This document shows positions 12,393 to 37,216 of a stretch of DNA of 64,000 nucleotides, one piece after another. The stretch covers positions 2,418,001-2,482,000 of the forward strand of contig NW_026250403.1 of the NCBI RefSeq assembly GCF_024521635.1. The letters are read 5' to 3'. The DNA comes from Tricharina praecox. Taxonomy: Eukaryota. Below the pieces are notes generated by a model. The model was not told the origin of the DNA. It saw only the letters and a program-made list of their open reading frames with translations, and did not search any database. Position 1 is the stretch's first letter. Each line of letters begins with the position of its first letter. A program made the translations under genes and the position numbers.

Positions 12393-12588
12393 TTAGCAGA
12401 TGGTGCACATGTGGTCTATTAGAGTATCGGTCGTCAGCTACTATTGAAATTTGATCGGGACTATTGAGGGAGGGAGGGATGAGAGGTAATTAACAGTGGC
12501 CCGGGGGTTGTCCATTGTGACCGGGAGCAGCGGGAGTGTTGCCTTCCTCGGAGGTAGCAGTGGAGACGATTTGGATGGATGGCTGCAT
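12393..12588 (-). CDS. a-factor-like CAAX pheromone precursor, copy A: MQPSIQIVSTATSEEGNTPAAPGHNGQPPGHYHMCTIC (exons 12588-12495, 12415-12393)
   Basis: 79-nt intron GTTAAT...GCTGAC...TAG (weaker donor than B/C). The spliced ORF is 38 aa and ends in CTIC*. TATAAA at 12715-12710. Confidence 0.8.
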
Positions 12589-14100
12589 ATTGACTGGGGT
12601 AGGTAGGATAGCGAGGAAACTGTTGTGAGTTGATGGTTTGTATTGGTCTTGAAGGCGGATTGCTGGCTGGATGAGGATCTAGATAGAAATCAGGAGGATA
12701 GGCTCGTCCTTTATACACAATTTTCCTGTATGCAGACGAAGCTTCAAGCGTTTCTAGTAGGCTTGGCTAACAGCCGCTCCGCCAAACGAAATCCGGTACT
12801 TTGGGCCACATGGTGGCGGTCTGGCGGGCTTGGACTGTGGCGGACATGAACTGTGGCGGGCTTGCGATCGTTGTCAACTGATGGTGCCGTTTCACGTTTG
12901 TTCTAGAATATTGGTCGCGTCCGTCATGTCAGACGCGATCTCCGCTTCCTTCCTAGTTGCGGACTGGCGTGTAAAAAGAACAATCGCAAGACTTTCCATG
13001 CGGGATGTGCATAAGTAAGGTGACAGTCTTACGAGCTGTCGGCCACCAACAACTAATAATAGTTGAGGCTAAGTGGGCTTCATATGGAGACCCGCGCGGA
13101 AAACGGGGCGTGTAACTTGGCGATTGTCCCCTCGAGAGAATCTAGTAAGCGAGTCAGATGCTGTGATGCCCCGCTTATGTGCACTTCATGCTCACTCACC
13201 ATTGAGATCGGCGGTTGCAGCGGGAACCGGGACGGTTTTCAGTTACTACTGCGCATAGAATCACGTGATGATGCTGTGAAAATGCTCATCGATGACCAAC
13301 TCGACAGGAATAGCCTCACTCTTCTCCCAGATCTCGGAGCAATGGTGACTGTTCTTGCGGTGGCGCATGTTTGTAGTGGAGCCCAAGACCGGGTTTCCTA
13401 CTGTCCTAGTCGAAAGGAGATAGATAAAGGATAGATGGATCTGCCAGTCAACTCTTAAGGGAGTGAAACAGGACCGCAGACGGGAAAGAGCCTTGTAGGT
13501 ATGTAATCTGAGGCTTCTGGATCCATCATCTGCTACATACATACTCGCATGTTGCCATCCCGAATCGAATCAAATACTGTGCTTCATGTATGATGTCCGA
13601 CGATCGCGGTTGTTCCTGAGCCGCCTCAAGCTCGGCAGTGCGGGACCCCGAAGGACGGTGTAGGGCAGAAACATGAGTACGCACGTTCAAGCCACGGAAA
13701 CGCCTCTGGAATCGGTGCGGTCACCGGTACCATGTGAGATACATCATGCCGCTCGGAGTAACCGCTCACTTGGAGCTAGCGTATCCATCCGGCCATGGTG
13801 CGTGCTGCAATACATACATAGCCGGGGGTTTGCCGGCCCTCTGTCTGTCTTTCTCTAGGCCTTCAAGGTTCTGAGGACCTAGGAGCGAGATCGAGTCCTG
13901 CTGGAGGTGTAGATCTGCTGCTGCGGGGCTTCAATTCAATTCTGATTCCTGCATCTTTCCCAGACCTGCAGTGCGCCAAAACTGTCGAAGGCTCGGTGTA
14001 AAGCAGGAGCGAAGAGTACAGCTCGTTACCAAGCGGCGGGCGAAAAGTTCGTTGTGAAGACGAGATGAAAAGTTGAGAGGCTATGATGCGAAATCCTAAA

Positions 14101-14277
14101 GGTGGGGCCGGAACGAGGCTGTGGTACGCAATGTGGAGCCGGAGCAAGGCTACAGTACATCGCGAAAGGTGCGTCGGGGCGAGGCTGTGGTGCGAATGGC
14201 GGTGCCGGTGCAGGTGGGGCCGGAACAAGGCTGCAATACCGTACATTATGTACGCAACGTGGGGCCGGAGCACGGCC
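14101..14277 (+). repeat. Degenerate minisatellite (gtggggccggaac/gcaaggctg core, ~4 copies)
   Basis: Recurring gtgg(g/a)gccgga(a/g)c motif visible in the sequence. Confidence 0.6.
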
Positions 14278-14652
14278 ATACCTTTATGTATAAACCAAAA
14301 ATGATCACATCACGAGCCTAGTGGCTGGGATATATGGTTGTGTATGCACGCTCTGTTACCTATTTGGAGGTCCCTGTGCACACTCTTCAAACACCGGTGC
14401 CAGCAGCCCATAGCCCATAGGTAGCCAGCAAGAACGCAAGTATTCATAATGCCTCAGAGATCATCGTCACACCGGAGGGGGATGAAGAGGGCGGGGGATG
14501 TTGTTCAAAACGACAACGTCGATGCTAGTACACATCAGACGGAGGGTGGAGATCCAGCTACCAAAGAAGTCCGACGCAGAAGTGGTCCGTGCAATCGCAG
14601 AGAAAGAACCGCTAGATTATAGTGCTCTCAGACACATACGTCGTCTACTATT

Positions 14653-14737
14653 TCCGAGTGTCCGGGTGTCCGAAAGTCCGAGTATCCGATAGTCCGGCGA
14701 GTCAGGGGGTCCGAGTCCGATTCCGAATCCGAATCCG
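14653..14737 (+). repeat. Phased TCCG array (6 copies at 8-bp period, then 5 at 6-bp period)
   Basis: TCCG at 14653, 14661, 14669, 14677, 14685, 14693, 14710, 14716, 14722, 14728, 14734. Confidence 0.75.
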
Positions 14738-15347
14738 CATCTGAACTCCTCCTCCGTCATCGCGATTGTGCCACAGCGGGTGCAACGGGTATGTACCTAA
14801 ATACATAGCGAATACATACCCACCCCTCAACATTCTCCTCCCCTCCACCCCTCCACCCCTTCACCATCTCCACCACCTCCATGGAGCGGAGGAGTGAACA
14901 TATTGTTCCACCTATCAGTACCTATACATAGTGGTGGTTGCTGTCGATCCCGAGAGGGGGCCCGGCGGGGCGGTGAGGGGGTCGTCAATTTTATTTCGCA
15001 AGCTGCCTCTCTACATACTAGGTAGTCGGCTGTGGCGAGCGCTTCAAGGAAGCCGAAACATTTCTTTCGAGCTCCTCACGGTGGTCACCGGCGCCTGGGA
15101 GACGGGCAGAGATTTCTCCACGGCGTCATGCGAGCTCACTCTGCTTGGCACATATGGATTAGCGCTATCACGTGAATTCATTGGTTCTCGCAGCGGACAA
15201 GTTTGGGAGGAGTGAGTAGAACCGCAAGTCGAAACAGAACATAAATTGACTAGTTGTAGTCTATGTATTCCGTGATCTCCTTCGCCCATGATAAAGAAAC
15301 CCACCAAAAACAACAGTTATAACACCAAAAATCATGAACTCATCGAA

Positions 15348-18300
15348 TCAGATCGCCGCCTTTGCTGTCCTCAGACTCTCCAGCACAATACCCAAGCCCT
15401 CCCCCATCCTCCAGACTCTACTAATTTCCCTCATCGTCTCCGTCGCCGCCTTCAATACTCTCTCAGGACACGTACAGATATTCCCGACCCCCGCCAGGAC
15501 GATCCTCCTATCGCCGCCACTCTCAATCCACTGCGCCGCGTCCTCGTCCAGATCGATATCGAGTCTCAGCGTCCCGCCCTCGCCCACTCCCCCCTCAAGG
15601 CCCTCCAGGTTCGACACCGACGAGGTTTCGCTCGCTCCCTCGCCCCCGCCGGTATACTTTCCATATGCCCAGAGGATCAGCGCGGCGTACAGCAGCAGGA
15701 TCGACTCGTGGAAGCCACGCCCGGGATAGCGGCGGATCAGCTGGAATACCCGGCCAGCGTGGATTACGGCGACCCGCGCATCGCGACATGTCTCGGGACT
15801 CTGTATCCATTTCGCCAGTTCCCGCCGTGCTTCTATGAGTGCTGAGGAGGTGGCGTGGAGGCCGGCGGACGTGTAGAGTGTGCGAAGCGGGGTGTAGAGG
15901 AATATGTGCGTCATGGAGATTGAGACTGCATTGTGTACCGATAGAGATGAGTCGACTTGCAGGGAAAAGCATTGGCTGAGAATCGTGAGACATGCGTCGG
16001 CTTCCAGGCGCCAGAGTTGGTTGCCGTTCGCCGTCGGTGGTGGTCGCCTATATGCGTGGGTATGATACTGCTTTGCGTCCCACGCGGTGCGGAAGACGGC
16101 ATGGACTAGCACAGACTTGACAAATTCACCACTGCGACGTATTCCCGTATCGTTACCAGCATAAAGGGAGGTCAGAGCCTCTTTGAAGGTCGGTGCAGGT
16201 GGGGGTCCTGGGATAACTTAGTATGGGCTCATACGGAGATAATAGAGGTATACCTTTTCCTCGTGAGGGCACAAAGAGATTTCTCCACGCGGACGCAGTC
16301 GGGGCATCCCAGAGCGGTTCATCTGACGGAAGTCGACTCTGCATCTCTACCATATTCAGCAGCGGTTGGACATCCGAATGCAGGGCGTATTCGCAGTCGA
16401 GTAACCATATCGCATATCCCGCACGCCGCCGTTGTTCGTCCATGACCCATATCCGCCACTTCTTTTCCAACGTCATATCCGCCGTGAGTTCCTCGACATT
16501 GATGGTATCCTTGAAGCATCGTTTCCGACGTCCCACCGTTACTGGCGCGTTTCGACTTGTCTGCCCGACCTCGACGTGCTTCTTGCTCCCGGAATAAACC
16601 ATGTTGAAGTGATCCAACGTGAAGGTCTGCACCAGCCACAGCTTGCGGACAACGCAGGAATCGTGTTCCAACTGCAAAATAGCCGTTAGTACAAAACACA
16701 CCACGGCGTCACGGGCAAGCTTATGTACCGTCAACTGTATACTCCGTCTCAACAGTTCCTGAAGCGCAATTCCACATGCCACCGCACCCTCCACACGGGA
16801 ATATCTTGCCCCAACCGACGCCACAGCTAGCACCAAGATCCAGTGTGTGGAATCTGCAGTCGGATCGAAAGTTGGCTTGTGTAAGAACGGAAGGAGTGGG
16901 TGGAAATATTCCCAATAAAGCTGAATGAAAGCGTTCAACACGTTGAGCGGTGGTATGACTGCATCCGAGATGGGTGTCCAGGTATATGAAGATTGTGTGA
17001 TCTTCAACGCCTTCTCCAACTGATCACGGAACCCCTGACCGACCGGTGGTACGTGTGCAAGGTCTTCCTCCTCGTTGAAGAGCTCGTCGACGTCTGGCGG
17101 CATCAGAGGGAAGGAAATATGTCCATCGGAAAGTCTGGGCTCGGACCAGTCGGTACTGCACATCCTCGATGCTTCGGTAGCGGGAGATGCTGCTCGGGAG
17201 AATGCGATAGAAGGACTCGGTGAAGCCGGAAGATTCGTCCTCTCAACCATATCATCACTTTCTGGCCCGGTTGAATATCTCGACCCGCCCTCGGTGCTCG
17301 AAACCGACGAGCTCTGATTCTGCTCGCTTTTTTGGTGGTGGTGGTGATAGTGACTATGGTGTTGCTGATGCGCCGGCGGCTGGGGCTGGTGCGCCTGCAT
17401 TGGTTCTTCGAAGGTGGGAGGAGGCAAACTCCGAGGCGTCAGATTTGACAGCGTGCCCTCAGCCCCGGGGGTTGGAACGTAGAACCCTATGCTTCCCATC
17501 GAGTTGTCCGCATGGAGGAGATCGTGGGTATCCACAGATGCCCGCAGAATATCGTCGCTCATCGTTGTGTCCCCACCCACCGTAGTCCAATCTAGAAGAA
17601 AGTCCAACGGTTCCAACTCCTCCTGGAATAGTGCTTCTAAGTCGGCGAACGAAGAATCCGTCATGCCACTTCCGGGAGTGAAACTAGTAGCCAAGCTGTT
17701 ATGCTGCTGATTGGGATACGGCTCGAATAGCTGCTCCAGTTCGGATAACGGCGGCGCATCATGCATCTGCTGGTCGATTGCCCGTGGAAGGATAAGCCCT
17801 AGTTGGGCGCTTCTCATTCCATGATCGGAATTGTCGCTCTCGTGCTCACTGTCGTTAACTCTTCCAGGATTCTGCAGCATCATGTCCGGATTTACCGCGC
17901 CTCCAAGTTCGTCCATGGTGTTTCCATTATTGTTTTCTAGTCGTGATACCAGCCTGTCGTTAGGATTCACGGTTCGGAGGATACGGTCCGGGGTGATTCT
18001 CATGTTGCCATAGTACTGGGAGCCAAAGCCAGAACCAGAGCCAGCCGCGGCTGGTACCCCTCCAGGGGAATACATGGAAGCGTTGCCCGGGTTTGAGCGG
18101 CGGCGTCTCGGTAGACGTTCGTGGTACTCACAGCCTACTTTCCGGTCTTTGCATCGGAAACACGGAGTTCTTCCGTCGCAGCGAACCTATCGATCCCAGT
18201 CAGCTACACGGACCCGCTAGAAGGTTTTTTTTTGACCGGGGGTGTAGCTTTCTCATTGTTATACCTTACTTCTGAAACAATTGTGACATGCTTGCTGAAC

Positions 18301-18985
18301 CCGTGCGGCATTGCTTCTCTGCTTGGCCTTCTTGGTGCCACCGCCTTCATGATTAGGGCCCGGGTGGATGGTGAGATGCCTATTGAGGGTGTCGCTGTGG
18401 AAGATGGGTTAACCATTAAGATGCACCGTGCAAGACATTCTGCCGTTGCCATCTGTAGGCGATGTATGGAGAGGTATCGAAGGGATTGGGTTGGTGTGGC
18501 ATGGCATGGTATGGTACATACCTTCGAGAGAATCTCTTCCCGCAGTGAGGGCAGGCGAATGGTTTCTCGGCGGTGTGGCAGCGTATGTGTCGGGTGAGAT
18601 GCTAAACCGAAGCCCAGCCGATCACATCGGCAACAGTTATTCTCAAAGGACTGGAAAGGAGGAAAGCGGGGCAGCATGCCTCTTGGCGACCGAACGTATC
18701 TCCGCAGATGCCGCAGGTGATTCCGGGAGCGATGACGGGCAGGGTAGGTCGGGTATTCGCGTTGGTGGCGGGCGGCGCCGGACTTCTCTCGGTAATCGGA
18801 CGGCCGAGTTCGATTGCGGCCGCGAAGGGACTATTGCTCGGAATCCGGAATTGCACTTCGTCGTGCACGTTGGCTGTACATGATGTATGGCTGGCAGGTG
18901 ATTTTTCCGCCTCCCCCTCCTCCCCCTCCTCCTGCTTGCCTCCCGTTATCGTAGCTTCCGGTCGAGAATCGGTATGGAACAACAT
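15348..18985 (-). CDS. Transcription factor with two C2H2 fingers, a Zn(II)2Cys6 cluster and a fungal-specific TF domain (Cmr1/Amr1-type architecture), multi-exon
   Basis: Spliced translation gives [49 protein letters not shown] and [28 protein letters not shown]. Downstream [21 protein letters not shown] and [16 protein letters not shown]. The start codon is uncertain. Confidence 0.9.
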
Positions 18986-21274
18986 GGTCGCAACGTGCCG
19001 CAGATCCAGCTTGCTCCACAGGTCCGGATGTGGGGGTGATGGGTATTTACATCTTTGCTGCCAGATTACTGCGTAGGAAGGTGCCGTGGAGGTGGGGAGC
19101 TGCGGCCGTTGAGGCCGAATGCCAAAGCCAGAGGCGGTAAGATTTGAGACACTGCTGTATGTAAGTAGATATGTCCGATATGTGCTCTGGACGTGTGTAG
19201 GGGTTGGGGCTTCCTTGTCGAGGCGCGTGCTTTGGCCGAGGTCGCGGAGACCAGCAAGACGGCCAGAGACTGACTGACCAGCACCGTGCTGCTATTGGTG
19301 GATTCTTGTACGTCGGAGGCATCACGGCATCACATCCATGTTGCATGCTGTGAGTGCGGCCGGCGTCATGCGGAACGGCCAACGCGCGAGCATCGCATCG
19401 CATCTAGAGTGGAGTAGAGTATATGTATGTATTTGCATAGTGCTTCTCCACACGTCTAGCTCGCTTCCCCGCATGTCCCACTTCCAAAGGCTGTTGCCGG
19501 ATCCATACATATCCACATCCACGCGATCCGTGACGCGGACGATCGCCCGCCGCGGCGGTCCCCAACCAGGTTCACGAATAGAGTGTGTCCGACGCATACA
19601 TACTAGGTAGACTACTACTAATGGGGTCGGGCCTTTTCGCATGGCGGCTCACTCAGCCCAGACTTTCTGGCCTCGGCCCTTCGTTTTCAGCCCCAACCCC
19701 AAACGTCTACCCCAAACGTCTACATGCTATATTGTCGGACTAATTCCGTCCCACGTGGAATCGGCGGTTGAAGATGTTCCGGCCGCCGACTCCGACCCTG
19801 GCCATAGTTACCAAGGCATAAGTCCCGACCCCGGCCATACTTAGACCTAGGTCCCGACCTCCGCGCGCCGACGTCAAACCATACCCTTCCTCCTCCCTCT
19901 TTCTTTCTTTCTGCTACACACCTTTTGTCTTGTTACCGAATAGTTACTCAACGGCGTACTTGCTTGCCGACGTATGTACTACATACCAGGTATGTACAGA
20001 TTTGAGTATTCTGTCTTGTATCGTATTTGCCTACTGTGTATACGATCAATCAAAGGGGGCAGGATCTGTGGTGGCGATATGGCACTGAAAACGGTCGTAT
20101 TTCTTGGAAAATACCTACTGGAGAGGTGCTTCGGTAGCGCTCTGTTTTTACATCACCATCGCGGCCAAAATGCTTATCCACCATCCACTATGTTGTAGAA
20201 ACAATCGACCATGCGTGGATCAGGTACCATATCGATACTGTATCCTACCCCACCTTGATTATACAGTAGCCACTAAACACCCGAGTATGTACGCCCCTTC
20301 AGGCCTCCAAGGAGCAGTGTCTTAGATCGGACATTAATTTAGAGCTTGATAGACAGCAACTCCTAGCTTATATTCTATCTGCCTAATCAATGGATATCGA
20401 TTGGATCTATCGATACACCCCGGCGTTTTAGTGATAGGTATCGCGTAGAAACCCATCAGGGCAAGCCAGGGCGGAGGTACATACATTTTACATATGATCA
20501 TACATGTCTGAGAGTGATTCCACACCCTTGACTCCGCTAGGTACCTATCATACTGACTCTGCTGCAACCTCAGAGTTGTTACATACATCACGTTGACTCG
20601 CAGGCTTGAGTGTATGTACTCGTGTCTCTGCCCCGGCCATAAGTGGCCGAGCTCCAGACTTCCAGTGAGCGAAAGCCCCCCCTACCCCGGGGTCGCCGCA
20701 CTGCCGAGCTTGAGGCGGCTCAGGAACAACCGTGATCGCCGGACATCATACATGAAGCACAGTATTTGATTCGGGATGGCAATATGCGAGTATGTAGCAG
20801 ATGATAGTTCTAGAAGCCTCAGATTACCTACGCCGCACCTTCTCGCGGCTTCAGTCGCGTTTCCAAGTTTCACTCCCTTGACTGGCATATCCATCGACCA
20901 TTTATCTTGATTCTCCTTTCGACGAGGACAGGAGGAAGCCCGGTCTTGCGCTCCACTGCAGACATGAGCCACCGCAAGAACTCAAGCCTGTTGCCATTCC
21001 CGCTGCAACCGCCGATCTCAATGGTGAGTGAGCATGAAGTGCACATAAGCGGTGCATCACAGCATTTGACTCGGTTACTAGATGCTCAAAAAAAACAGTA
21101 TTGGTCGCGGTTAATTAGTGTGAAAGGCTTTTAGAAGGGTGTGAGGAAGGGGTAGAACCGCGCGTGTCTCCATATGAAGCCCGCTTAACCTTAGCTATTA
21201 TTAGTTGTTGGTTGCCGACAACTCGTAGGACTGTCGTCTTACTTATGCACATCCCGCTTATAGAAAGTCTTGCT

Positions 21275-21553
21275 ATTGTTCTTTTTAACCGCGAGTCCGC
21301 GACTGGGAGGGAAGCGGAGGTCGTGTATGACATGACGGACACGACCAATATTCTAGCACAGACTTGAAACGGCACCATCAATTGGACAACAATCGCAAGC
21401 CCGCCACAGTTCATGCCTACCACAGTCCAAGACCGCCAGACCGCCGCCATATGGTCCAAAGTACCGGATTTCCTTTGGCCGAGCGGCTGTTGGCAAAGCC
21501 TAGATTCTAGAAACGCTGAAGGTTCGTCTGGAAAGAGGAAAATTGTGTATAAA
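21275..21553 (+). promoter_or_regulatory. Putative pheromone-gene promoter: HMG-like ATTGTT/AACAAT, PRE-like TGAAACG, CCAAAG-N11-CTTTGG, TATAAA
   Basis: ATTGTT 21275-21280, TGAAACG 21365-21371, AACAAT 21388-21393, CCAAAG 21456-21461 / CTTTGG 21473-21478, TATAAA 21548-21553. TATA and PRE-like motifs are conserved in copies A and C. Confidence 0.5.
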
Positions 21554-21695
21554 GGACGAGTCTATCCTCCTGGTTTCTAGATCCTCATCCAGCCAGCAAT
21601 CATCCGTCTTCAAGACCAATACAATCCACTCACACTCACAACACTTTCCTCGCTATCCTACCTCAGTCGCTATCCTACCTCAGTCAATTATCAAA

Positions 21696-21881
21696 ATGCA
21701 GCCATCCATCCAAATCGTCTCCACTGCTGCCTCCGAGGAATCCAACACTCCCGTTAACAATGGAAACCCCAAGGCCCACTGTTAGTTACCTCTCATCCCT
21801 CCCTCCCTCAATAGTCCCGATCAAATTTCAATAGTAACTGACGACCGATAATACCTAGACCACATGTGCACCATCTGCTAA
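21696..21881 (+). CDS. a-factor-like CAAX pheromone precursor, copy B: MQPSIQIVSTAASEESNTPVNNGNPKAHYHMCTIC (exons 21696-21780, 21859-21881)
   Basis: Start context CAAAATG. 78-nt intron GTTAGT...CTGAC(21838-21842)...TAG(21858), the first AG after the branch point. 35 aa ending in CTIC*. Confidence 0.88.
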
Positions 21882-22241
21882 GTGCTCGCTGGATCCTTAG
21901 TACCTACAGTGCGCCCGATCAGATTCCATCTTCGACTTTTCCTTCTCCACAATCATTCTGTACGATTAACGCTTTTCTTTTCGGGTTTCCAACGACTTTC
22001 GCGGGGTAGACTGTAGTGAGGCAGGAGGTTTTGTCTTTGGGATTATTCGAGCAAGTGGCGGGGATCATGGATGTACCGGTCTGATGGTTTTATGTTGAAG
22101 GGTTATGTGAGACGAAATAACGTACTTTGTCTGTTTTCGTTATGTCACTGTTATGTGTTGTCAGCTCAGCAATGATAGAATTATGACCACCTCTTCATCT
22201 TTCCGATCTTCGTCGAGCGAGTGGCATGACAGGAATAAACA

Positions 22242-22460
22242 CCCATTCACTCTCACGACCACTCACACAGTACGAGTCTCTGCAAAATCCACTCATCAAT
22301 CGTCTGCAACGTCCCATTCACTCTCACGATCACTCACACAGCACGAGTGTCTGCAAAGTGCCACTTACTCTCACGTTCGCTCACCAATGGTCTGCAACGT
22401 CCCATTCACTCTTCCGTCCACTCACTCTGCACGAGTCTTGGCAACGTCCGATTCACTCTG
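22242..22460 (+). repeat. Imperfect tandem array (cccattcactctcacg..cactcacac..cgagt.tctgcaa units)
   Basis: About 5 degenerate units starting exactly where cassette B homology stops. Confidence 0.7.
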
Positions 22461-22675
22461 GCGCGTAGACGAGAAATCCCCGGTGGCATGGAAATCGCTA
22501 CGACCTCGCCCGCAAAAAAGAGGGAAGGTTGGCAATCTAGGTATCTCGAGAATTTCCCGCTTGGAAACGCCTGTCGGCTACCTAAGCTGTTCCTAGGTCT
22601 CTCGAGTTTCCTCATCGTCTCGCTTTCCCTCCCCTCGCCATCGGATCGGTAGGCGTGGAGGTATCTTGATCTTTC

Positions 22676-23200
22676 TAGTGATGGGCCGGACCGGAACAGA
22701 TCTTGTCAGACCGTCCAGTCCGGACTGCAGTCCTGACCGGACTATGTCGAACACTGGAGGTACATATGTAGGGATTTATCATTTCGTTGCAGCTGTGGTT
22801 CATTGCAAAAGTGAGTCGCGGTGATGTTGATATTCGTCCACGATGAGACTTCCCGGTAGAGGAACCGATTATAGTAGCTCATCGCCCAGGTGTTGAGCCG
22901 GGCGGGATTGACTGCAACATCATCCTCTCTCGTTTCGGCGTATCTCCTTAGGTTGGCTGCTGTTGCAGCATCAAATTGCACACGCCTGCTCGTGGGTGGG
23001 CTTCGTATGAAAGTAACAAACTTGGTCGCCACCATCTCACGTTCATCGCTATTCTTTTTTTTTGTTTAATCAGTAATTTCTGGCGCGTTTGTCGCTATTC
23101 CACGCTATGGGAACGTGTTCATGATTACTCACTCGGAGCTCGAATGACTGTGTGTGATGTTAAACAAGTGTTGACACCTTGGAATGTAGCATATTGCCAT
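22676..23200 (-). mobile_element. Degenerate hAT-like transposase remnant with a possible terminus
   Basis: FVTFIRSPPTSRRVQF...DVAVNPARLNTWAM..NRFLYREV..W resembles the hAT IRSS.RR..F...D..TRWNS...M..R motif. TAGTGATGGGCCGGACCGG at 22676 resembles a hAT TIR start. Confidence 0.45.
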
Positions 23201-23904
23201 GACCTAGGTCGCAAACAATTACTGGTTAAATAAAAACAAATCTTGGAATGTAGCGGTGTTTGCTAAAAGGCAAACTTTTGAGTCGCGGCTAGTGCGCTAG
23301 AAGTGATTGCTTGGAATCCACCCACTTCACTTATAAAACCCTCCTTTCCTCCTAACTCTTCCTCCCTTTCTCCTCTCTCCTCCACTCATTAAATTCTTCT
23401 CCTTATTTCTCATCGGGCACTAATTGTTGATTCACGGTACTGACCTAGGATTAGTTTAGTCAACATCAGGTTTTTCAACTACTCAGTAAGTCCTCTCTCT
23501 TTCCTCCACCTCGTCGCAGCTTGATACTTACTTGTCTTCTTTATTCATCAACAGGGCTTAGGTCTTCCGCCGAATACTACCCCTTCCTTTCTTCCACTGG
23601 AGCCCGAGCTCATACCTCGAGGTGTGTCGTTCTTTCTCTCCCCCCCCAACTTTGTATTTCCAGGATAACCTTACAGAGCTGTCCTGCTCAGCCGTAGCAG
23701 CGAGGAACTGAGGGATCCGTGCAACTAGTTTACATAGTAGACTGTTGTAGTCAGAGACGGATCCAACCCTCGAGGCTGAGCAGAAAACATCCAAGGACGG
23801 GATTTTCTCTTGTGCTGCCGGCAGAAGTTCTTTCCCCCTTCCTCCGGGGGTCCAAGTCGGTCAAGACTCGACTTGCCAACTTGCTCGCGTTGGATGGCCC
23901 CTGA

Positions 23905-24690: not shown

Positions 24691-24927
24691 GTAGTGCAGG
24701 CTGTTGCCCAGTACATCGATGTTTGATCCTTTACCTATGACATCAGCTTCGTACACCTGAGAGGAAACTTGGGTTTCATGTAACGCAGGCCTCTGTTCCA
24801 TCCCAGTGGGCAGAATTAGCCATCTTTATTGCCCATACTTGTACAAGGTATGTATGCTGGGGTCTTTACATCCACCACGGTGGATCAAAAGTCATGACTC
24901 GCTTAATTCAATCTTCAATTCACTCCT

Positions 24928-25404
24928 CTAATCTACCCACAGACCGGGCATTTTATGCTCCGGTTCCTCCTGCTCCTCCTGCTCCTCCTCCACCTCCTCC
25001 TCTCCTCCAGCACCTACTTTGACCCAGATGCTCTCGGCCGCACGGCTGGGCGCATATCCCCCTTCGTTCTTCAACGGATCGAGCCGGAGGCTCTTGTCCT
25101 CCTCGGGGCCACCGTACTTCTCCCCGAGGTGTATGCAGCGGCCGAGGGCCCAGCGCAGCTGCTTCTGGCGCTCCTTGAGCTCGGCGCGCAACTTCTCGTT
25201 CTCGGCGATGCTGATGCGGTCGGCGATCTCGGAGTTGTGCAGCAGGGACTCGATCAGGCGCCGCGCTCGTAGCGACTTGGCGGGGGCGGACGGCGGACGC
25301 TCTGGGAGCGGGGCGCGCGTGCTGGCCATATTAGCCTGGGTGGCGCTGGTAGCCGCGGTGGTGCTGGGTGTCTTCTCCGCCTTCGGCTGCGGCTTCTTGG
25401 TCAT
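24928..25404 (-). CDS. Orphan coiled-coil protein, paralog 1 (ancestral 5' end disabled)
   Basis: 158-aa ORF; the core ARRLIESLLHNSEIADRISIAENEKLRAELKERQKQLRWALGRC aligns with 37751-38077. C-terminus KMPGLWVD. Confidence 0.6.
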   Translation of the reverse strand: MTKKPQPKAEKTPSTTAATSATQANMASTRAPLPERPPSAPAKSLRARRLIESLLHNSEIADRISIAENEKLRAELKERQKQLRWALGRCIHLGEKYGGPEEDKSLRLDPLKNEGGYAPSRAAESIWVKVGAGGEEEVEEEQEEQEEPEHKMPGLWVD

Positions 25405-26089
25405 GCCCGAGGGCTGCAGAAGTTTGGGTGGCGAGGGGGTCGAGGGGCGCGGTCTTGGTGGGGGGCTAGGGCGACATGGTTTATTGGTATTTCTGTTGTC
25501 GTTATTGTTATTATTGTCGCTTGTGTGAAGAGTTGTTGTTGGTAATGTGTTCGCTGGATGGATGGTGGGAAGGGAAGGAAAGGAAAGACGGGAGCTGTGG
25601 CTTGGTGGGTTGGTTGGTAGAAAAGATGAGCTCTGAGGGCTGGTGGAGCGATTAAAGCATTTCAGTCTTGCGAAAGTGGGATACCTCCTCCCGCGCTAGC
25701 GTGAAGAAATTATCGCCAAAATCCACCTTTGCCGCGATTGTCGGATTACTGCTAACCATAAATCATCACTCGGTACGTTCTCCGGCGCAGTTGAAGTGGC
25801 AAATTTGGGTCCAGGAGCTACTGGTACAAGAAATAGAGAGAGAGAAAGAAAACCGAACTTGGACCCGCTACCGCACCGAATGTTCCGAGCACCTACCACC
25901 GGTCCTCTGAACGGCTGGTGGACCCACACTCATCACACACGTCTTTATTCCTCCCCTCCCTCGACGATGAAGTTCATCGTATGTATGTAGGGGTCCTCAG
26001 CTCCACAGCCGGCAACGCAATTGAGGCGTATCACGTGATTCGCATTAATACTACCGAGTGATATCTACCTAGTGCTCCCTCCGTCACGC

Positions 26090-26252
26090 CAAAAACAAAA
26101 ACCGTCACCACCCACGGCGGTGGGTGGCTTGGAAACCCCAAGAGCTGAATACAAAGATCTTTCACCTGGGTTGAACCCAGAACCTTCCATCAGCTCCCCT
26201 CGCCGATTGCGTGGTCTAATGGTTTAGGCCACGCGGGTTTTTTTCCGTGCCG
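26090..26252 (-). mobile_element. tRNA-derived SINE-like/Pol III element
   Basis: Reverse complement of 36931-37093; B-box GGTTCAACCC within a CTGGG/CCCAG stem; T-run terminator. Confidence 0.55.
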
Positions 26253-26825
26253 GAAACATGAATTTGATGTTTATAAGGTAGTGGGTGCCCCGCCTTTGCA
26301 AGTGCTTTGCTTGCACTGAGCAGATCATAATTGAACCTCTCGCCTTACAAACGGCCAAGCAGAGCACCTACTCTACTCCAGCGTCCACTCGGAGGGAATC
26401 ACAATGACGTGCCGGTATCGCAGCCACCGCCTGCGCGATTCTTGAACTGCCCAACTGCCCGGTTTGTGCTTGCCGCCCAGGCTTCTTTCTGTATATTTGC
26501 TGTGTGGAGTCCAATTCGTCACACTCCCACTCCACCTCTCAATCAACTTACTTGGGCATTGCGTTGATTCATTATTCGGCGAGGTCAGTCGCTTAAGATC
26601 ACCTGAGGAGATGGCATTCGGACGTGGTCATTTCCAGCGCTTGTGTTTTCGAAAGCACTTGGGACTTTGGCAGTCGGTTCAATGAAGCCTCTGACCACGA
26701 TCCTGGATGCGCAAGAAATACAGACACAGAGGATTGGATGAAAGGCTAGTTTTGGGCCAATAGTCAGGAATTTGGGTTGAATATCTCAACACGCAGATTA
26801 AATTCCTCATCCATGATATCTTGTT

Positions 26826-27809: not shown

Positions 27810-28249
27810 TTTTGTGCTGGTGAATAGTAGGGATGAGGTGGTTGTGAGGAGTCGGCGGATCATGGGGGGAATCGAAGAGAGATTGTGGAACTCCGGTAGC
27901 TAAGCTGTGGTTATGGTGATAAAGGTCCGGGGTCGGAGTTTCAACAGCGGGGTAACGTCATAGTTGGTCTTGGCCAAAGTGATCGATTGTGAAGACATTC
28001 TAACCATTCTTAGCTACAACTATATAGAAAACAAAGTACTCCAGACACCCCTACAGATGACCCCATTCCGAACGCTCCATGTACAAAAGAAACCTCTCGC
28101 CGCTGTAGAAGCAAGATGTAGAAAATAAGTAGATGCGAAAAAATATCCCTGCCGGGGAAAGAAAGAAGAAAAACATTTACTCCAAAGCTCCCCCAATCTG
28201 CTAAGCCCACCCACCGAAACAAAACACAATGCCCAACAACAGTATCTAA

Positions 28250-30070
28250 TCAGTGGGATGAGGAGGTAATGCTGAACCGCCTCGAACCACTCCCAGTACT
28301 CCTCTTACTCTTCAAGCCACTTGAATAGCTAAGCTTCCGCAGCTTCTCCTCCAAGCTCCCAGGCTTCACCTCCGCAAAGCTCAAGCCCAAAGCGTCCTCG
28401 CTCACAGGCGAGCTCTGTCCGAAATATTCCTCTGTCCATCCCGGAAAGTTCTCTTCGCCCTCCACGACGACGGTGTGCATGCCGCAATGCGGGAGTTCCT
28501 CGTCGGTTATCCCCAGCACGAGCTTGTACAATTCCTTCTCGATGCGCCGCGCAGTGGGCCTAAGTACGGGATCCCGCTGTAGCATATCCCGGCAGACGTT
28601 GAGACAGCCCAGGAGCACGTTGTCGTGTTTGTCTTTCGCCCGCTTCTCGATGCTGTCGAGCCAGCTGTCGACCTGGCCCATGTTGGCGTGGAAACTCGCA
28701 TCCGGAGGCGCCGATTCCCTGGGTCGTCGGTTCTTGCACGAGCGGTGCGAGGCAAAGGCCGAGCTCTTGCGCTTGATATAAAATGTGAGGATTTCAACGT
28801 GGATGCATGCCAGAGAGAATACGTCGCTGTTCCAGTAGTCGACTTTTGTGGGGCTCCTCCATGTTCCGACGTGAACCGATTTCTCGAAGACCGGGGAGGA
28901 GGGCGGCGATTCCTGCGACGAATCGGATGGACGGCGGTCGGTTGGACGGTAACGCACTCGATTCCTCCCGGAGATGGTAACACCTTGGGACTGTGTTGTT
29001 TCGTGGCATGACATCTTCCGCTTCCAGAGCTCGGGCGCGCCATACTCGTAGCGTTCAACGTCCGTGACGGCCTGGGAAGCTTTAGGATCGAACGACTTGG
29101 AATTGCCGATATCGGCAAGATAGATCTTGTTTGAACCGTCGACAATGATCCCGGAAGGTTTGATGTCCCCGTGGGCAAGCCCTTCTTCGTGAAGGTAGGC
29201 AAGGGCTTCCGAGAGGCAGTGCATCCAGTCAATCAGAAGCAGTTTCCGGCGGTCTTTGGAAAGCGACTTGTACGTGCTCGGAGGGTACTGAATAAACGCT
29301 TTAAGGCTCTGGTCGACCGTCGGAGAGAGGATGATGTAGCCAAGGTCGTGCTGGGTGTAGGTTGCATAGATGGCGCCGATGTGAGGATGTGTTATGGAAC
29401 TCATGGCTCGGATCTCGTCCATGAATGCCTCGATCGAGATGTGAGTGGAGGATGCTTCCTCAGCGATGGGTACTCGCCGCCGGGAGTAGTAGATGTCTCG
29501 CCGCCGTGGGAGGTAAACCTTTTCGATTGCCGACTGCGACCTCGCAGCTGGGATGCGGTTGAAGATGACTTCCAAGGGGACAATCTCGTCCTCGCTGTAA
29601 TCCACATGCGTTCCCGGCTCGAGGTCCCGGACCATAAACAACTGCTGTTTCTTGGAGAACTTTTTTTCCATCCCGGGTCCCAGTGTTAGCTGTGCTAGAC
29701 TCTCCTGAGAAAGCGGCAGATCGTCGTCATCCCAGGACCCATCGATCAGGTCGAAGATCTTCTCCGGACAGCCGATTTCTCCAAGTAACAAGAACAGTTT
29801 CTTCGTCTTCTTGACGATCCACTCTCCGTAGGTGCATTCGGTCAATCCTTCGCCAAATTTCAACTGGTCATCCAGTCGTTTCCGTAGGGAGGAGTCGGGT
29901 ATCTGCCGACGGATGTAACCGTGTGTTACTGTTGTGGCGATCTTCTCGTCGTCCCAGAAAGTGGACGTCAACACCACCGGCTGGGGTAGCCCCGAGTTTC
30001 CCGTGTATCCGCCATACATTGCTGAAAACAAATCGTATCTCTGAGTGTCGATGTTCCCAAGCTGTGCCAT
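28250..30070 (-). CDS. Fungal protein kinase-like protein, probably a pseudokinase
   Basis: 606-aa ORF with HPHI, LAYLHEEGLAHGDIKPSG, LADIG, YGAPE, SDVFSLACI, DPVLRPTA. Confidence 0.88.
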   Translation of the reverse strand: MAQLGNIDTQRYDLFSAMYGGYTGNSGLPQPVVLTSTFWDDEKIATTVTHGYIRRQIPDSSLRKRLDDQLKFGEGLTECTYGEWIVKKTKKLFLLLGEIGCPEKIFDLIDGSWDDDDLPLSQESLAQLTLGPGMEKKFSKKQQLFMVRDLEPGTHVDYSEDEIVPLEVIFNRIPAARSQSAIEKVYLPRRRDIYYSRRRVPIAEEASSTHISIEAFMDEIRAMSSITHPHIGAIYATYTQHDLGYIILSPTVDQSLKAFIQYPPSTYKSLSKDRRKLLLIDWMHCLSEALAYLHEEGLAHGDIKPSGIIVDGSNKIYLADIGNSKSFDPKASQAVTDVERYEYGAPELWKRKMSCHETTQSQGVTISGRNRVRYRPTDRRPSDSSQESPPSSPVFEKSVHVGTWRSPTKVDYWNSDVFSLACIHVEILTFYIKRKSSAFASHRSCKNRRPRESAPPDASFHANMGQVDSWLDSIEKRAKDKHDNVLLGCLNVCRDMLQRDPVLRPTARRIEKELYKLVLGITDEELPHCGMHTVVVEGEENFPGWTEEYFGQSSPVSEDALGLSFAEVKPGSLEEKLRKLSYSSGLKSKRSTGSGSRRFSITSSSH

Positions 30071-33000
30071 AGGGTTTCGATGTAGGATGAGGAAGTGGGG
30101 GAGGGCGGGGGGGCCAGGGTCGTGACTCGTGAGGGCCGGGCTGTTATAATAATAAGGACACTGCCTGCGTAGATATTGATATCTATCTATCGGGTGGATC
30201 CGTCACGCGCTTGAACACAAGCGCCACGCCGATAAATATCCGTAGATGACGGTTTACAAGGGATGGTCGCCGGCTAGGTCTCCGAAACCGGAGTGGTCAT
30301 TCAACAAGTGCTGATAGTCCTCTGGTAGTAGTGGTGTTAGTAGATCCCGGAAAGATGTGCAGCCCTATCTTGCGGCTCACCTCTTGAGCCGAGGAATGGA
30401 TGACGCGAGGGAGGGGGCGTCTTCGGCTGGTTCGTATTGAAAGTGAGGTTGATGAGCGAGGTGAATCGTCTGTGATTGATGCTTCGATTGTGCAAACCAG
30501 AAGAAGGGAAGCAGCAGCAGCAGACAGTCCAGAATATACGGGGTATGTAGTAAAAAGCACGGACTCAATCCTCCGTGCAGAGGCCGGCCGACGGTTGATA
30601 TTTGGCAGAGCATAGAACCACCTACTAGCCCGCCGGGCACATGCCTGACGGATTCCGTACATGTGTTGTGCGGTGATCCGCGATAAGAACGTTCCTGTCA
30701 GAGCGCCAATACAACAGGCTGGATACCTACTCTATGGTTACGGACGGGGTTACAGGGATGGAGTATTATTTCGAACTCTGGAGTTTGGAGTATTTACTGA
30801 AGCTGATAGGTTGACAAGTACACTGACCATCACAGCCCCTTCCACTTCCGGTTCCCAACACGAGCCTATCACGACCGGAATCCCATAGTAGAATAAAGTA
30901 GAGCCCCGAATGCGATTGCTTTGTTTTTGTTTTCTTTTTGATATGCTGAGACCCTGGGGAATGAGGGGTATGCAAGTAGGAACGGCTCACTAACGCAATG
31001 GCCGGTTTCGTTGTGTCCAGACTTCAGCTTGCCATTTCACTGCGAGTCATCAGCCATCACATCGCATCTCACCCGCGTAGAGCACAGTACGGGCCTCCCC
31101 TCCCCCAATAAGGTTCCGTCGATTCCCCCGCCAAGAGGGCTTTGAGTGACCGTAATCCCGGGAATTCGGTGTCCCCCCTCAGATGCCCCCCTTAGATCCC
31201 CCTCCCCCCACACCAGCTCAGCCGACTATGTTTACACGGCGGTATTGGCATCTGGAGCCCCCCCCACAATATGGACACAGTATAGGTAGGCAGCCAGACT
31301 GCGATCGACGAGCCTGGGTGCCCGGTGATAGGGGAAACCGAAGCTGGCGATTGGCTCCGATTTGATTCCGATTCATCCGAACCATATCGTGGTTCATGCT
31401 CCATTTTCCCAGGCAGTGAATGGTAGGTAGGCAAACCTGGTAACTAACGGGCCACCACGGCGGTAGGAAAACGGCAGTTTGGATGGGCGCGTACCAGGCA
31501 GAAACCAGAGCAGCCAGGAGTCGCGGGCGGGCGGGGGGCCCATGTACCGGTAGATACCGTACCGTCCTCGAGGACCGTATGTATGTGCTCTGCGTATATA
31601 GGCATTCGAGAATGTCCGTTCTCGTATTTCGGTATATAGTAGATAGTACGGTATACTCGGTAAGTAGAGTCTCTAAATTCAGTTTGTCAAAAGTCTTTCT
31701 CAATAGATTGCTGGGGGGTGGGGGGAGTTGGGCCGGGAAAGCGTGGGGTAAGAGTAGAGTAGATACACACATACAAGCACGAACCCTGAGGACGGCCATG
31801 GAGGGTTGCTCGCTCGCTTGCTTACTTGCTTATCTCTGTGTCGCCACCCAGAACCAGTAACTAAGGCGGCCGAGTTCGCCTACTACTCTACTAGTAGTCG
31901 GCGACGTCCTACGGTGGAGATTTGGGTGAAGGTGAAGAGTTGGGGCGCAGTCGAAAAGAAGAAGAGAAGCTTTGAAACCTGCTGTGGGAGGTGGGAGTGT
32001 GCGACTGCTGACTTAACGATGAATGACGAGGCGCTTTGGGGTATGGACAGTGGACAGCCGTGTCGCGTGGCGCGTGGCGCGAAGGTTGTTTACGGCATCT
32101 TCCCTTTCTCCGAGGAAATACGGTTCCTAGCGATAATTATCATACATTAACTGCGACGTCCCCCCCAGAAGATATCTCTTCGACGTGCATGACTGAAGCG
32201 AGTTGTTTGGATCCCATATCGATCGATAACCACCTATTGCGAACATTCCATCTCTCTTCTACATACAACCGACGACTCCCCTCCGACAGCCAGGCCAGCC
32301 AGCCAGCCAACGCGAATGAGCCGTGATGTCTACATAACGAACAGCTAACCAAGTACCTATCTATAATCTACATACCTATTCCAGCTGCGGACTCGCAGCC
32401 AAGCCACGCACCTCCGACTTCGCCGAACAGAACAACCAGTGGCACTAGCAACAGAACCGCATTATGCATTGCAGCTCACACAGTGGAAGAAGAAGCAGAA
32501 GAAGAATAAGAAGAAAGAGGAGAAGAAGGAGAAGAAGCAGAAGGAGGGGAAGAAGGAGAAGGAGGAGATCGAAGCCCTCAAAGCAGAGTGCAGTGGGAAA
32601 TATGATACGGGCGAGACCATATTTACGTAGGTATGCACACAGAGGGAACCGGGCATACTTGCTTGCTTTCCTCTGATATCGTTCCATCTTTCGGATTGCG
32701 ACCTCACAACGTCGTATCATATCGTATCAGAATTCTCACCACTTCACCGGCGGCGATCCAGGATGACATCGTCATTACCGGCGTCGGCCACCATTCCGAT
32801 ACTATGTATGATATGCACATAAGTACTTCCGTAGTTCTGGTCTAATTCGCTCTTCATATCTAGGTAGATAGGCGGCAGGTACCGGTACGTACGTACTATA
32901 CACATATAGCCCCGTGAATCGTGATGGCCCAGGCTCTCTGCTACCGAATTCCTGGCAGAGTTCTCGGGCTTTCCGCGTGGTTCCGTCCGAGGGGCCGAAA

Positions 33001-34644
33001 CAAACTCAGGACGGAGCGCGAGGCTGTATGTACCAGTATGTACAGTACATACATCATATGTGAATCCCGGATTCCCCACGTAGAACAGATGCACGTTTTC
33101 GTGGGGAAAAGCCGGCCGGTCGGCCATGCAGGGTGCAACTAAAGCTCGACTACTCTACTCTACTAGTTAGTACCTAGTGCAGGCAAACCAGATTGTTGGA
33201 GTCAGCCTCCAGCCAATTCCCCAAGAAGGGAAAAAGCATTCAATCTTGCCGCGTATCAAGAGCTGGCTCTTGAGACGACGGCAGGTTCGATGGTCAATCC
33301 GTTCGAGAAATCTATCGTGACGTCCGCTGCCAAGAGAAACATCGGATCCAACCTCCGGTTGCATTGCGTTCGAACTTCGCAAGCCTCCTCGTCCGGCGGG
33401 CTGATTACATATCCCATGCATACAGTTATCCGCCAGGCATCATCACTCGTCCATCCAACGCGGCCGCACGGCCGGCCTCTAAATCCCGGAAGCTGCTCTA
33501 CTGGATTTAAGTGTGAGCTCCGCGAACTATATCGACTCTATTATAGACACAGCCCAATGCGGAAAAAACAAACCCTTTAAAACGCCAAAAAAAAACGCAG
33601 CACTCGTCCGCGAGCGAGCTGCACAGGGGAGGATTCCCCTTTTGTGAACCATGAGAGATAACTTTGGGGATGATCGCCGGCACCGTGGGAATAGGTATAT
33701 GCCATCCCACGCACGCTACTACCTAGTAGAGTAACCCCGATCCCACGGTACCGAACGAACATGTCCAGATAACGGAGTCGAAGCAAGTGAACCGCTCAAA
33801 AAAGAAACGCAGCTTGTGCTTTTTTTGTTTTTGTTTTTTGCTTCGGGATGGGCCGCGGCGGTGGAAAGGGTGCACCGCGAATCACCAGTCCGGCCGGTTG
33901 GATCATGGGGTATCACGCGAGAAGGTCGGGGAGATCCGCCGCCCACGACTAGTAGTAAAAACGAAAACTATTTCGAACCCAGTCGGAGGGGGCATGGGAG
34001 ATGGGGGTCTTCCGTGAGCTTGTCATCGGGCGGTTCATGTGTCGTGGCAGGACTGTGGATGGGAAAAAAGTACATATACACGCCGTCAGTCTTCCATAGG
34101 GCCGAATAGAGTAGGTACGAGCATGATCAAACCCCCCCACCGAAAAAGAAAAATGAAAGTAAAAAATGATTCAAGTACCGGTCAATACTCTACATATGGT
34201 CTTCATGAGCCGGCATACGTTGCGGACGGACGGGCGGATGGACGGGGTTCTGGAATCTAGATGCGCTTAACGTGTGTATTTTCGATTTTTCCAGAACCTG
34301 ACTGAAATTTTTTGATATCTCTCCCTTCTGCATGGTCCGCTGAACTCTACCCGCTCCCCTCCGAGCAAGACAAGACAATGGTTCCCGTCGAACCCGCCGC
34401 CGCCCTCCAATGCCTCCATATGCAAAAAATGCAGAAACCTCGAACCCAATCGAACACAGAGTAGGGGGCCGTCGGCCCCTTGCCAAGTCCCAGTTCCCTT
34501 TCCTCAGTGGTTATGTAGAACACGTGAGCACCGACGAGTGAGAGTATCAGCAAACGACGCGCGTAGATCCCAAACGCGCAGACTATGATCAGGGGAGGTG
34601 GCGAGGAAGTGTTGTTAGTTTGATCCCCAGGGTACACGTCTGGT

Positions 34645-35075
34645 TGACTCGTCGTCCACTGGAGGTACTGGCCGGTGAGACACTGTTCTGCTTCATCTGG
34701 TAGAACCTCGAATCCAGCCGCTTAGAGGCCATGATGGCCAGGAACGGGTCCGGTCTCTAGCTACATTTTCTGCCGAACCGGTACTTCTTGTTGGTGACTC
34801 GGGCGCCGGCCAATGCTTTGGCTTCTTTCCACTTGCTTTACGTGATGCCTCGCCTCAGGTATGCGAGTTACGGAGGTGGTAGCGGTCTGGTGCCTTCCAC
34901 TCCGTGAGCGATGGGGTTGCCAGCTGCCAGTTTGGTCCATTCGTCGGCCTTTTCGTTCCCGGGAACCCTTTTGTGTACCGGACACCATCTGGTCTCAATG
35001 GTGGGCTCCTGTACAGGGCTTGGCGACAAACCCATTGCCCATTGCCCACCATAACGCCGCACTGAGTGATTATTC
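34645..35075 (-). mobile_element. Degenerate Tad1-like LINE ORF2 3' fragment (RNase H and downstream region)
   Basis: TIETRWCPVHKRVPGNEKADEWTKLAA, followed by ASKRLDSRFYQMK..CLTGQYLQW with stops and frameshifts. Confidence 0.8.
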
Positions 35076-35425
35076 CTGTCACGCCACACGCCGCTCGACG
35101 AAGGTCGGAAAGATCAAGAGGTGATTATAATTCTATTATTGCTGAGCTGACAACACATAACCGTGACATAAAGCAAAAACAAAGTACGTTATTCCGTCTC
35201 ACACAACCCTTCAACATATAAAACCCTCAGACAGGCACATCCATGATCCCCGCCACTTGCTCGAATAGCCCAAAGACAAAACCTCCTGCCCCACTACTCC
35301 GAGAAAAAGTCATTGGAAACCCGAAAAGAAAAGTGGTAATCGTACAGAATGATTGTGGAGAAGGAAGGTCGAAGATGGAATCTGATCCGGCGCACTATCA
35401 TAGATACTAAGGGTCCGGCGAGCAC

Positions 35426-35615
35426 TTAGCAGATGGTGCACATGTGGTCTATTAGAGTATCGGTCGTCAGCTACTATTGAAATTTGATCGGGACTATTGA
35501 GGGAGGGAGGGATGAGAGGTAACTAACAGTGGGCCTTGGGGTTTTCATTGTTAACGGGAGTGTTGGATTCCTCGGAGGCAGCAGCAGTGGAGACGATTTG
35601 GATGGATGGCTGCAT
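35426..35615 (-). CDS. a-factor-like CAAX pheromone precursor, copy C: MQPSIQIVSTAAASEESNTPVNNENPKAHYHMCTIC (exons 35615-35528, 35448-35426)
   Basis: CAAAATG start; 79-nt intron GTTAGT...GCTGAC...TAG; 36 aa ending in CTIC*; TATAAA at 35737-35732. Confidence 0.88.
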
Positions 35616-37093: not shown

Positions 37094-37184
37094 GGCGTGA
37101 CGGAGGGAGCACTAGTTAGATATCACTCGGTAGTATCACGTGACAAGGCTTGACGCTTACGCTGCCCAGGGGGTCCATGTTCGG

Positions 37185-37187
<3 letters not shown>

Positions 37188-37216
<29 letters not shown>
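37188..37216 (+). repeat. (TC)n microsatellite
   Basis: Direct observation. Confidence 0.9.

Follow-up and report, generated by a model that had tools for sequence, protein, structure and literature searches.

Three intron-split micro-genes of Tricharina praecox as candidate precursors of an a-factor-like mating lipopeptide

In the present study, we analysed a stretch of 64,000 nucleotides (nt) of Tricharina praecox DNA (contig NW_026250403.1, positions 2,418,001 to 2,482,000; hereafter the window), which was found to carry three paralogous two-exon micro-genes, named copy A (minus strand), copy B (plus strand) and copy C (minus strand). Judged from the sequence, it is moderately probable that the three duplicated cassettes in which they lie are paralogous precursor genes of a farnesylated, a-factor-like (ppg2/mfa-1 type) mating lipopeptide. 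This reading draws on gene anatomy and statistical distinctiveness, and the function is proposed by analogy with the yeast a-factor and with ppg2/mfa-1 of the Sordariomycetes. If it is correct, a family of lipopeptide pheromone precursors would here be described for the first time in the Pezizomycetes. The class includes truffles and morels, in which control of fertilisation limits cultivation.

T. praecox is a pezizomycete of the Pyronema group. Ascomycota as a whole have conserved both types of pheromone receptor (Wilson et al., 2023, PMC10569646). The same authors note that the genes of a-factor type are usually unannotated; in Pezizomycotina the a-factor pheromones were known only from Sordariomycetes, and a putative Leotiomycete candidate is the first outside that class. 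In Pyronema confluens, the pheromone genes were reported as not found (Traeger et al., PMC3778014). Our search of the open-licence PMC and bioRxiv literature returned no report of an a-factor-like gene in Pezizomycetes, and this result, with which both papers agree, bears out the preliminary description of this DNA, in which such genes had been regarded as uncharacterised in the class. The lipopeptide ligand of the Ste3-type receptor in Pezizomycotina has been identified only in Sordariomycetes and, putatively, in Leotiomycetes (PMC10569646); the T. praecox family offers a concrete, sequence-defined candidate. Farnesylated pheromone genes are typically present in multiple copies, and introns hide some of them, as in Schizosaccharomyces pombe and in MFA4 of Yarrowia (Srikant et al., 2021, bioRxiv 10.1101/2021.09.28.462209); the intron-split layout of a CaaX pheromone gene is, on these examples, itself not new.

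Gene anatomy and predicted products

In copy A, all on the minus strand, exon 1 (12495-12588) consists of 94 nt, that is 31 codons and one base. It is followed by a predicted intron of 79 nt (12416-12494; GTTAAT...CTGAC...TAG) and by an exon 2 of 23 nt (12393-12415), which completes a Tyr codon and then encodes HMCTIC and a stop. Copy B, on the plus strand, comprises an exon 1 of 85 nt (21696-21780), a predicted intron of 78 nt (21781-21858; GTTAGT...CTGAC...TAG) and an exon 2 of 23 nt at 21859-21881. In copy C, on the minus strand, exon 1 has 88 nt (35528-35615), the predicted intron has 79 nt (35449-35527; GTTAGT...CTGAC...TAG) and exon 2 again has 23 nt (35426-35448); in both of these copies the second exon holds the CaaX box and the stop codon. 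Despite their different lengths, the first exons all leave one base over after division by three, hence the intron is in phase 1 in each of the copies. The second exon and its acceptor are invariant across the three.

A TATAAA box lies upstream of every start codon, at 12710-12715 on the minus strand in copy A (at -127), at 21548-21553 on the plus strand in copy B (at -148) and at 35732-35737 on the minus strand in copy C (at -122). The start codon is in all three copies the first ATG downstream of this box, at a distance of 122-148 nt. The leader between the two is free of ATG and rich in pyrimidines (C+T of 0.60-0.63) in the three copies, and the context of the start codon is good (ATCAAAATG in copies B and C). 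The predicted spliced products of A, B and C have 38, 35 and 36 amino acids, start with MQPS and end with CTIC before the stop, while the unspliced open reading frames (ORFs) of exon 1 would give 29-32 amino acids. In the predicted splice, the last T of exon 1 and the AC of exon 2 form the Tyr codon, after which His-Met-Cys-Thr-Ile-Cys and the stop are read. The preliminary description had given coordinates, exon and intron lengths, TATA boxes and MQPS...CTIC products for three micro-genes, and all of these were exact on re-reading. It had also stated that ORF-based searches would miss a CaaX box placed on a 23-nt second exon; the layout was confirmed, and Yarrowia MFA4 provides a precedent. 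A phase-1 intron with a 23-nt CaaX exon directly behind it may serve as a search template for genes that ORF pipelines miss.

By analogy with the known a-factor systems, each micro-gene would be transcribed from its own TATA-box promoter. Removal of the phase-1 intron of 78-79 nt would join the Tyr codon and bring the seven-codon exon with Cys-Thr-Ile-Cys and the stop in frame, and the product would be a cytosolic precursor of 35-38 amino acids. The Cys of the CaaX box would then be farnesylated, the last three residues would be cut off and the new C-terminal Cys would be carboxymethylated. The N-terminal extension may be cleaved off; a plausible site is just after the conserved Asn, 9-10 residues ahead of the Cys. 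A Ste6-type ABC transporter would export the lipopeptide, which the mating partner would sense with its Ste3-type receptor.

The predicted products have several of the features by which pheromone precursors of this type are recognised. With 35, 36 and 38 amino acids they fall in the range of short precursors (about 20-65 amino acids), no signal peptide was seen by eye, and the N-terminal half is hydrophilic and rich in Ser, Thr and Glu. Given the predicted splice, a box of the CaaX/CPAX class stands directly before the stop codon in all three copies. The pheromone criteria of Srikant et al. include more than one copy in the genome and, 5-20 residues ahead of the Cys, an Asn-X cleavage site (bioRxiv 10.1101/2021.09.28.462209). 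The window contains three copies, whose mature-region identity is given below; Asn-Gly (A and B) or Asn-Glu (C) is located 10 residues before the Cys, and copies B and C have a second Asn 8 residues before it. In addition, position a1 is occupied by a polar residue, here Thr, as it is in the putative a-factors of Leotiomycetes with the endings CTVM, CTIL and CSIM (PMC10569646).

The predicted introns were compared with two hand-checked native introns of the window. The intron of the CN-hydrolase gene, aligned to the annotated T. praecox protein, has 66 nt (GTAACC..CTAAC..TAG). That of a Zn2Cys6 gene, identified by reading, has 78 nt (GTATAA..CTGAC..TAG); its removal restores the pattern Cys-x2-Cys-x6-Cys, and the Zn2Cys6 Pfam match, which lies in the exon downstream and starts at position 11 of the model, fits the 78-nt intron. 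In the micro-genes a CTGAC branch motif occurs 17-18 nt upstream of the TAG acceptor in all three copies, and this is the sole CTRAY at least 8 nt ahead of the acceptor; an extra CTAAT in copies A and C lies 3 nt before the acceptor, too close to serve. As read from these sequences, the length, branch motif and acceptor of the micro-gene introns agree with the native ones. Two earlier AGs were tried as acceptors and rejected, as the introns would have 34 or 54 nt and no branch site upstream.

How far such a gene model departs from chance was examined by scans of the window and by simulation. In the strict scan, both strands (128 kb) were searched for an ATG ORF leading to a GTNNG[TC] donor, with a CTRAY 8-45 nt before a YAG, an intron of 45-130 nt and a product of 25-60 amino acids ending in a strict CaaX. 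The scan recovered copies B and C and no other model. Under the same rule, 60 order-1 Markov windows gave a mean of 0.08 models, and 1 of the 60 reached two. With a looser donor rule the scan returned A, B and C and nothing else, the null mean was 0.67 and 5 of 60 reached three. Single-exon ORFs ending in Cxxx-stop number 16 in the window, and a strict CaaX was present in none of these (0/16). In the drift simulation, the 186-nt gene of copy B was mutated at the substitution and indel rates of the A-B flanks, and any ATG-intron-CaaX model remained intact in 910 of 20000 runs (4.6%); with substitutions only, the model was intact in 2103 of 20000.

Furthermore, the C-content of copy B at codon positions 1, 2 and 3 is 7, 13 and 21 of 35 codons (p=0.003). 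The third-position bias of copy C is similar to that of B, and copy A gave p=0.06. Periodicity equal to that of the micro-gene was reached by none of 1159 segments of 102 nt in the cassette flanks and by 47 of 18258 across the whole window, real genes included. The six non-ATG codons of exon 2 all follow the third-position C pattern. When the scans, the drift simulation and the codon bias are combined, a real, translated and spliced gene appears to be the best reading.

The duplicated cassettes

The duplicated units were defined by self-BLAST of the window and by pairwise alignments. Cassette A extends over 11757-13650 on the minus strand, cassette B over 20688-22245 on the plus strand and cassette C over 34353-36694 on the minus strand, and their size is about 1.6-2.3 kb. 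Similarity among all three runs from about 300-330 nt upstream of the ATG to about 350-500 nt beyond the stop. The shared promoter block of copy A starts about 300 nt upstream of the ATG with TGAAACGGCACCATCA (12879-12894, minus strand), and exact matches to it mark the start of the block in copy B (21365-21380, plus strand) and in copy C (35908-35923, minus strand); the window has three exact matches in all, against 0.03 expected.

The flanks of A and B are about 10% divergent. Copy C is a mosaic, with a B-like promoter and exon 1 (91% and 98.8% identity to B, respectively) and an A-like sequence from the intron onward (98.7-100% identity to A; downstream, 349 of 349 nt are identical). The switch from one to the other is at or near the boundary of exon 1 and the intron. 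This mosaic structure indicates, from the alignments, that recombination or gene conversion acted among the cassette copies. Since the copies are paralogues and C is a mosaic, they amount to about two independent lineages and not three.

Outside the micro-ORF, no other ORF was common to the copies, frameshifting indels separating them, and an Rfam scan of 10000-40000 (E up to 1) and a tRNA scan gave no match. The ratio of transitions to transversions (ts/tv) among the cassette substitutions is about 1; because there is no excess of transitions, there is no signature of repeat-induced point mutation (RIP). The contrast in ts/tv between exon 1 and the flanks was not significant (p=0.18). A Ste12-like motif, TGAAACR, occurs once about 300 nt upstream in each cassette. 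It was dropped as evidence since its frequency is that of chance (16 in the window against 15.2 expected).

Some further observations concern the surroundings of the micro-genes. About 0.6-0.7 kb upstream of each ATG there is an invariant block (13176-13226 on the minus strand, 20997-21047 on the plus strand and 36258-36308 on the minus strand), of which 51 nt were searched and about 88 nt are kept in the alignment of all three cassettes. It holds a perfect short-intron signature of 58 nt, GTGAGT...CTGAC...TTACTAG. On its 3' side the sequence of A departs from that of B/C, and the ORFs 5' of it are broken differently in each copy. This block may have been left over from an adjacent gene that was duplicated with the cassette, or be an unrecognised exon.

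A second, inverted duplication (24797-26288 against 36895-38212), with a piecewise identity of 74-90%, adjoins cassettes B and C on opposite sides, and for this reason the region has been rearranged and not merely duplicated. As a paralogous gene pair this duplication was rejected, as its longest ORFs have no protein similarity and Pfam gave none. Tandem repeats were found at the downstream end of cassette B (22221-22459; three copies of about 80 nt), at 41606-41867 (two copies of about 128 nt) and at 55940-56174 (two copies of 114 nt); the last lies within an 858-codon open frame (55683-58259, minus strand), for which there was no Pfam match.

Contrary evidence and rival explanations

A number of results weigh against the pheromone reading, and they come from the divergence of the paralogues, from the gene model and from the search for relatives. 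Between A and B, exon 1 is 88% identical, against 89-91% in the flanks. The differing codons, seven between A and B and one between B and C, are all replacements and none is silent. As far as their alignment can tell, nothing in the paralogues points to purifying selection over most of the peptide. Constraint was seen only at the splice signals, in codons 1-11 and in the last nine codons, and gene conversion alone could keep exon 2 and the intron identical. Of the 10 residues ending at the Cys, three differ between A and B, so that the predicted mature peptides would differ among the paralogues; in the yeast systems, by contrast, the mature peptides of paralogues are identical or nearly so. 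In a hand count from the Asn to the stop, the identity is 13/14 for B and C and 11/14 (79%) for A and B, and the cut-off in Srikant et al. is 85%. In the claim that these are a-type lipopeptide pheromone genes, the anatomy and the fit to the published operational criteria stood, and the differing predicted mature regions of the paralogues and the absence of a purifying-selection signal speak against it.

The argument that exon 1 tolerates indels only in multiples of three proved weaker than it had seemed. The indels of exon 1 are indeed of 3 and 9 nt only, and the gap runs of the flanks are of 1, 2, 4, 5, 7, 10 and 17 nt besides 3 and 6. The 3-nt indel, one of the two, sits in a CTG/GCT trinucleotide repeat; it is attributable to repeat slippage and would be in frame regardless of selection. 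The introns had also been described as canonical. This is true of the native-like branch, acceptor and length, but the GTTAAT donor of copy A is off the GTNNGT consensus, which is not disqualifying because both native donors are also without G at +5. In addition, Cys at position X is unusual for ascomycete pheromones; the residue is compatible with farnesyltransferase. The open-licence PMC and bioRxiv literature yielded no paper that combines 'CTIC' with 'CAAX'.

The all-replacement pattern is compatible, on the aligned codons, with neutrality or with diversifying selection. It is improbable, in our estimate, that the pheromones encoded by the paralogues are distinct and subject to diversifying selection, and that the genes are in this form previously unreported lipopeptide pheromone genes of Pezizomycetes. 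The idea arises because eight of eight codon differences are replacements and several of them fall in the six residues before the invariant His-Tyr-His-Met-Cys. If true, it would mean a small multi-pheromone repertoire in one ascomycete genome, of a kind otherwise known from basidiomycete mating loci.

Relatives of the cassettes were sought in a metagenome collection without T. praecox. A scan with a degenerate pattern of the first nine codons found no stretch. Syntenic loci were then looked for by means of the neighbouring CN hydrolase, whose product is 100% identical to an NCBI T. praecox protein, followed by those of Sphaerosporella brunnea (80%) and Trichophaea hybrida (78%). This search matched 585 stretches, of which 530 were confirmed and 80 kept, and BLASTN of the three cassettes against the 80 kept loci gave no match. 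Closer examination was limited to 3 of the 80 loci (L001-L003), with 88%, 74% and 73% CN-hydrolase identity. The closest of these relatives, L001, a fungus from a soil or root metagenome, shares the kinase-hydrolase pair (5463-8733 of that locus), with protein identities of 78% and 88%, and has no cassette within the 18.7 kb of contig covered. The flank of L001 that corresponds to the position of cassette B in T. praecox has unrelated sequence, and nothing is shared beyond the kinase and the hydrolase. Since L001 shares the gene pair but not the cassette-B side, the cassette neighbourhood is lineage-specific or rearranged. Motif scans and strict one- and two-exon CaaX scans of the three loci found nothing, and no orthologue was seen in the metagenome loci searched. 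Among three soil metatranscriptome runs, no contig matched the window at 21000-23000 with 85% likeness, a result without bearing on expression.

Protein searches gave a similar outcome. With phmmer, the unspliced 32-amino-acid ORF had two matches at E up to 0.001 among 1.84 billion representatives; both exceed 1200 amino acids, and we judged them to be low-complexity noise. An exact look-up of the three unspliced ORFs in the protein collection found them absent, and a search of the ESM Atlas with the unspliced ORF gave no usable match. Pfam assigned no family at E up to 10 to the three unspliced exon-1 ORFs (29-32 amino acids); the Pfam models of pheromones are clade-specific, so this null says little.

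Three rival explanations were considered. In one of these, the cassettes are a duplicated non-coding segment, possibly an old remnant of a gene neighbourhood, and the arrangement of ATG, ORF, intron and CaaX is a coincidence copied along. We regard this as unlikely. It agrees with the duplication of the entire 1.6-2.3 kb unit, beyond the ORF, with the divergence of exon 1 at the pace of the flanks and by replacements at every differing codon, with the slippage origin of one of the two in-frame indels and with the gene conversion evident in the mosaic copy C. Neither an orthologue nor an annotation was found in the searches made, and extrapolation of the null rate to a genome of tens of megabases would lead to tens of chance two-exon CaaX models. 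On the other hand, a chance of 0.08 per 64-kb window is only about 0.002 per stretch of cassette size, and the gene model outlasts neutral drift of the A-B kind in only 4.6% of the simulations. The third-position C periodicity, moreover, lies exactly in the predicted frame, and the position of the start codon as first ATG after the TATA box in every copy speaks for a gene. If the pheromone reading should prove false, the case would be a warning of how convincing a chance CaaX micro-ORF in a duplicated segment can look.

A small probability is also given to the view that the micro-genes are real and expressed but serve some purpose outside mating, encoding another prenylated micropeptide or an unspliced His-Cys peptide of 29-32 amino acids, or acting as a non-coding RNA with a functional 3' region. 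Promoter-like and coding-like features do not specify a function, and the predicted mature regions vary among the paralogues. About 350 nt past the stop are conserved like the gene or more, A and C being 100% identical over 349 nt; however, the frameshifting indels downstream (runs of 1, 2 and 5 nt) speak against a further coding exon there. The unspliced version ignores a canonical intron that delivers a CaaX box and stop 7 codons later. To our knowledge, the fungal prenylated proteins of 20-45 amino acids are essentially all pheromone precursors, which counts against this view as well. In its favour, a CaaX box also occurs in proteins other than pheromones (PMC10569646). It is very improbable, finally, that we are dealing with a non-autonomous transposable element or a fragment of one, in which the ORF would be incidental. 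Such an origin is suggested by the dispersal of three copies over 23 kb, with both orientations represented, and by a fragment of a piggyBac-type transposase (DDE_Tnp_1_7, E = 1e-28) at 44295-44873 on the minus strand, about 9 kb from cassette C. Against it, the ends of the copies are ragged and do not coincide, and no terminal repeats were seen at shared ends, in a search that did not extend to target-site duplications. Inspection of the cassette revealed no transposase-like ORF inside it, the substitutions show no RIP-like excess of transitions, and the absence of BLAST matches in the 80 fungal metagenome loci points the same way.

Comparison with known pheromone systems

The predicted T. 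praecox precursors resemble MFA1 and MFA2 of Saccharomyces cerevisiae in length (36-38 amino acids in the yeast), in the CAAX box, in the Asn cleavage site and in the presence of at least two copies. Unlike them, the yeast genes lack introns and encode a CVIA box, and a single residue separates the mature peptides of MFA1 and MFA2. Mfa1 of S. cerevisiae, like the T. praecox products, starts with MQPS according to the preliminary description, a point for which our literature search returned no paper.

The M-factor genes of S. pombe (mfm1-3) number three and, like those of T. praecox, form a small family of short CaaX precursors. An intron in the gene is a further likeness (bioRxiv 10.1101/2021.09.28.462209). 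S. pombe belongs to another subphylum, there is no detectable similarity between the sequences, and the function of the mfm genes is proven, whereas the T. praecox genes are candidates predicted from sequence. In Yarrowia lipolytica, MFA1-4 are dispersed copies as in T. praecox, and MFA4 is hidden from ORF searches by an intron with canonical splice signals typical of the species; it came to light in the way the T. praecox genes did. The mature peptide of Yarrowia is fully conserved among copies and species and its variation is mostly synonymous, while the T. praecox paralogues differ by replacements. Deletion of the Yarrowia MFA genes abolishes mating (bioRxiv 10.1101/2021.09.28.462209); the T. 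praecox genes are predicted candidates.

In the Sordariomycetes, the precursors encoded by N. crassa mfa-1, S. macrospora ppg2, P. anserina mfp and M. oryzae MF1-1 share with those of T. praecox a short length, a Ser/Thr-rich N-terminus, an aromatic residue just ahead of the CaaX Cys and the lack of a signal peptide. They have 21-26 amino acids and are usually single-copy, and we know of no such gene that is split before the CaaX. In addition to being shorter, they carry a box of the CVVM/CVIM type and a Gly-Tyr motif (PMC10569646), whereas the T. praecox tail is His-Tyr-His-Met-Cys with Cys at position X.

The putative Leotiomycete a-factor (the B. cinerea BCIN_13g03330 family) was, like the T. 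praecox genes, found by a homology-free CaaX/CPAX filter and is usually unannotated. It also has Thr at a1, CTVM being the most frequent box and CTIL occurring too, and a Ser/Thr-rich N-terminus (PMC10569646). The Leotiomycete candidate is longer, with 45-64 amino acids, and its conservation extends to at least 111 of the species studied in that work (PMC10569646), whereas the T. praecox family consists of predicted precursors of 35-38 amino acids, encoded in multiple copies with an intron before the CaaX exon.

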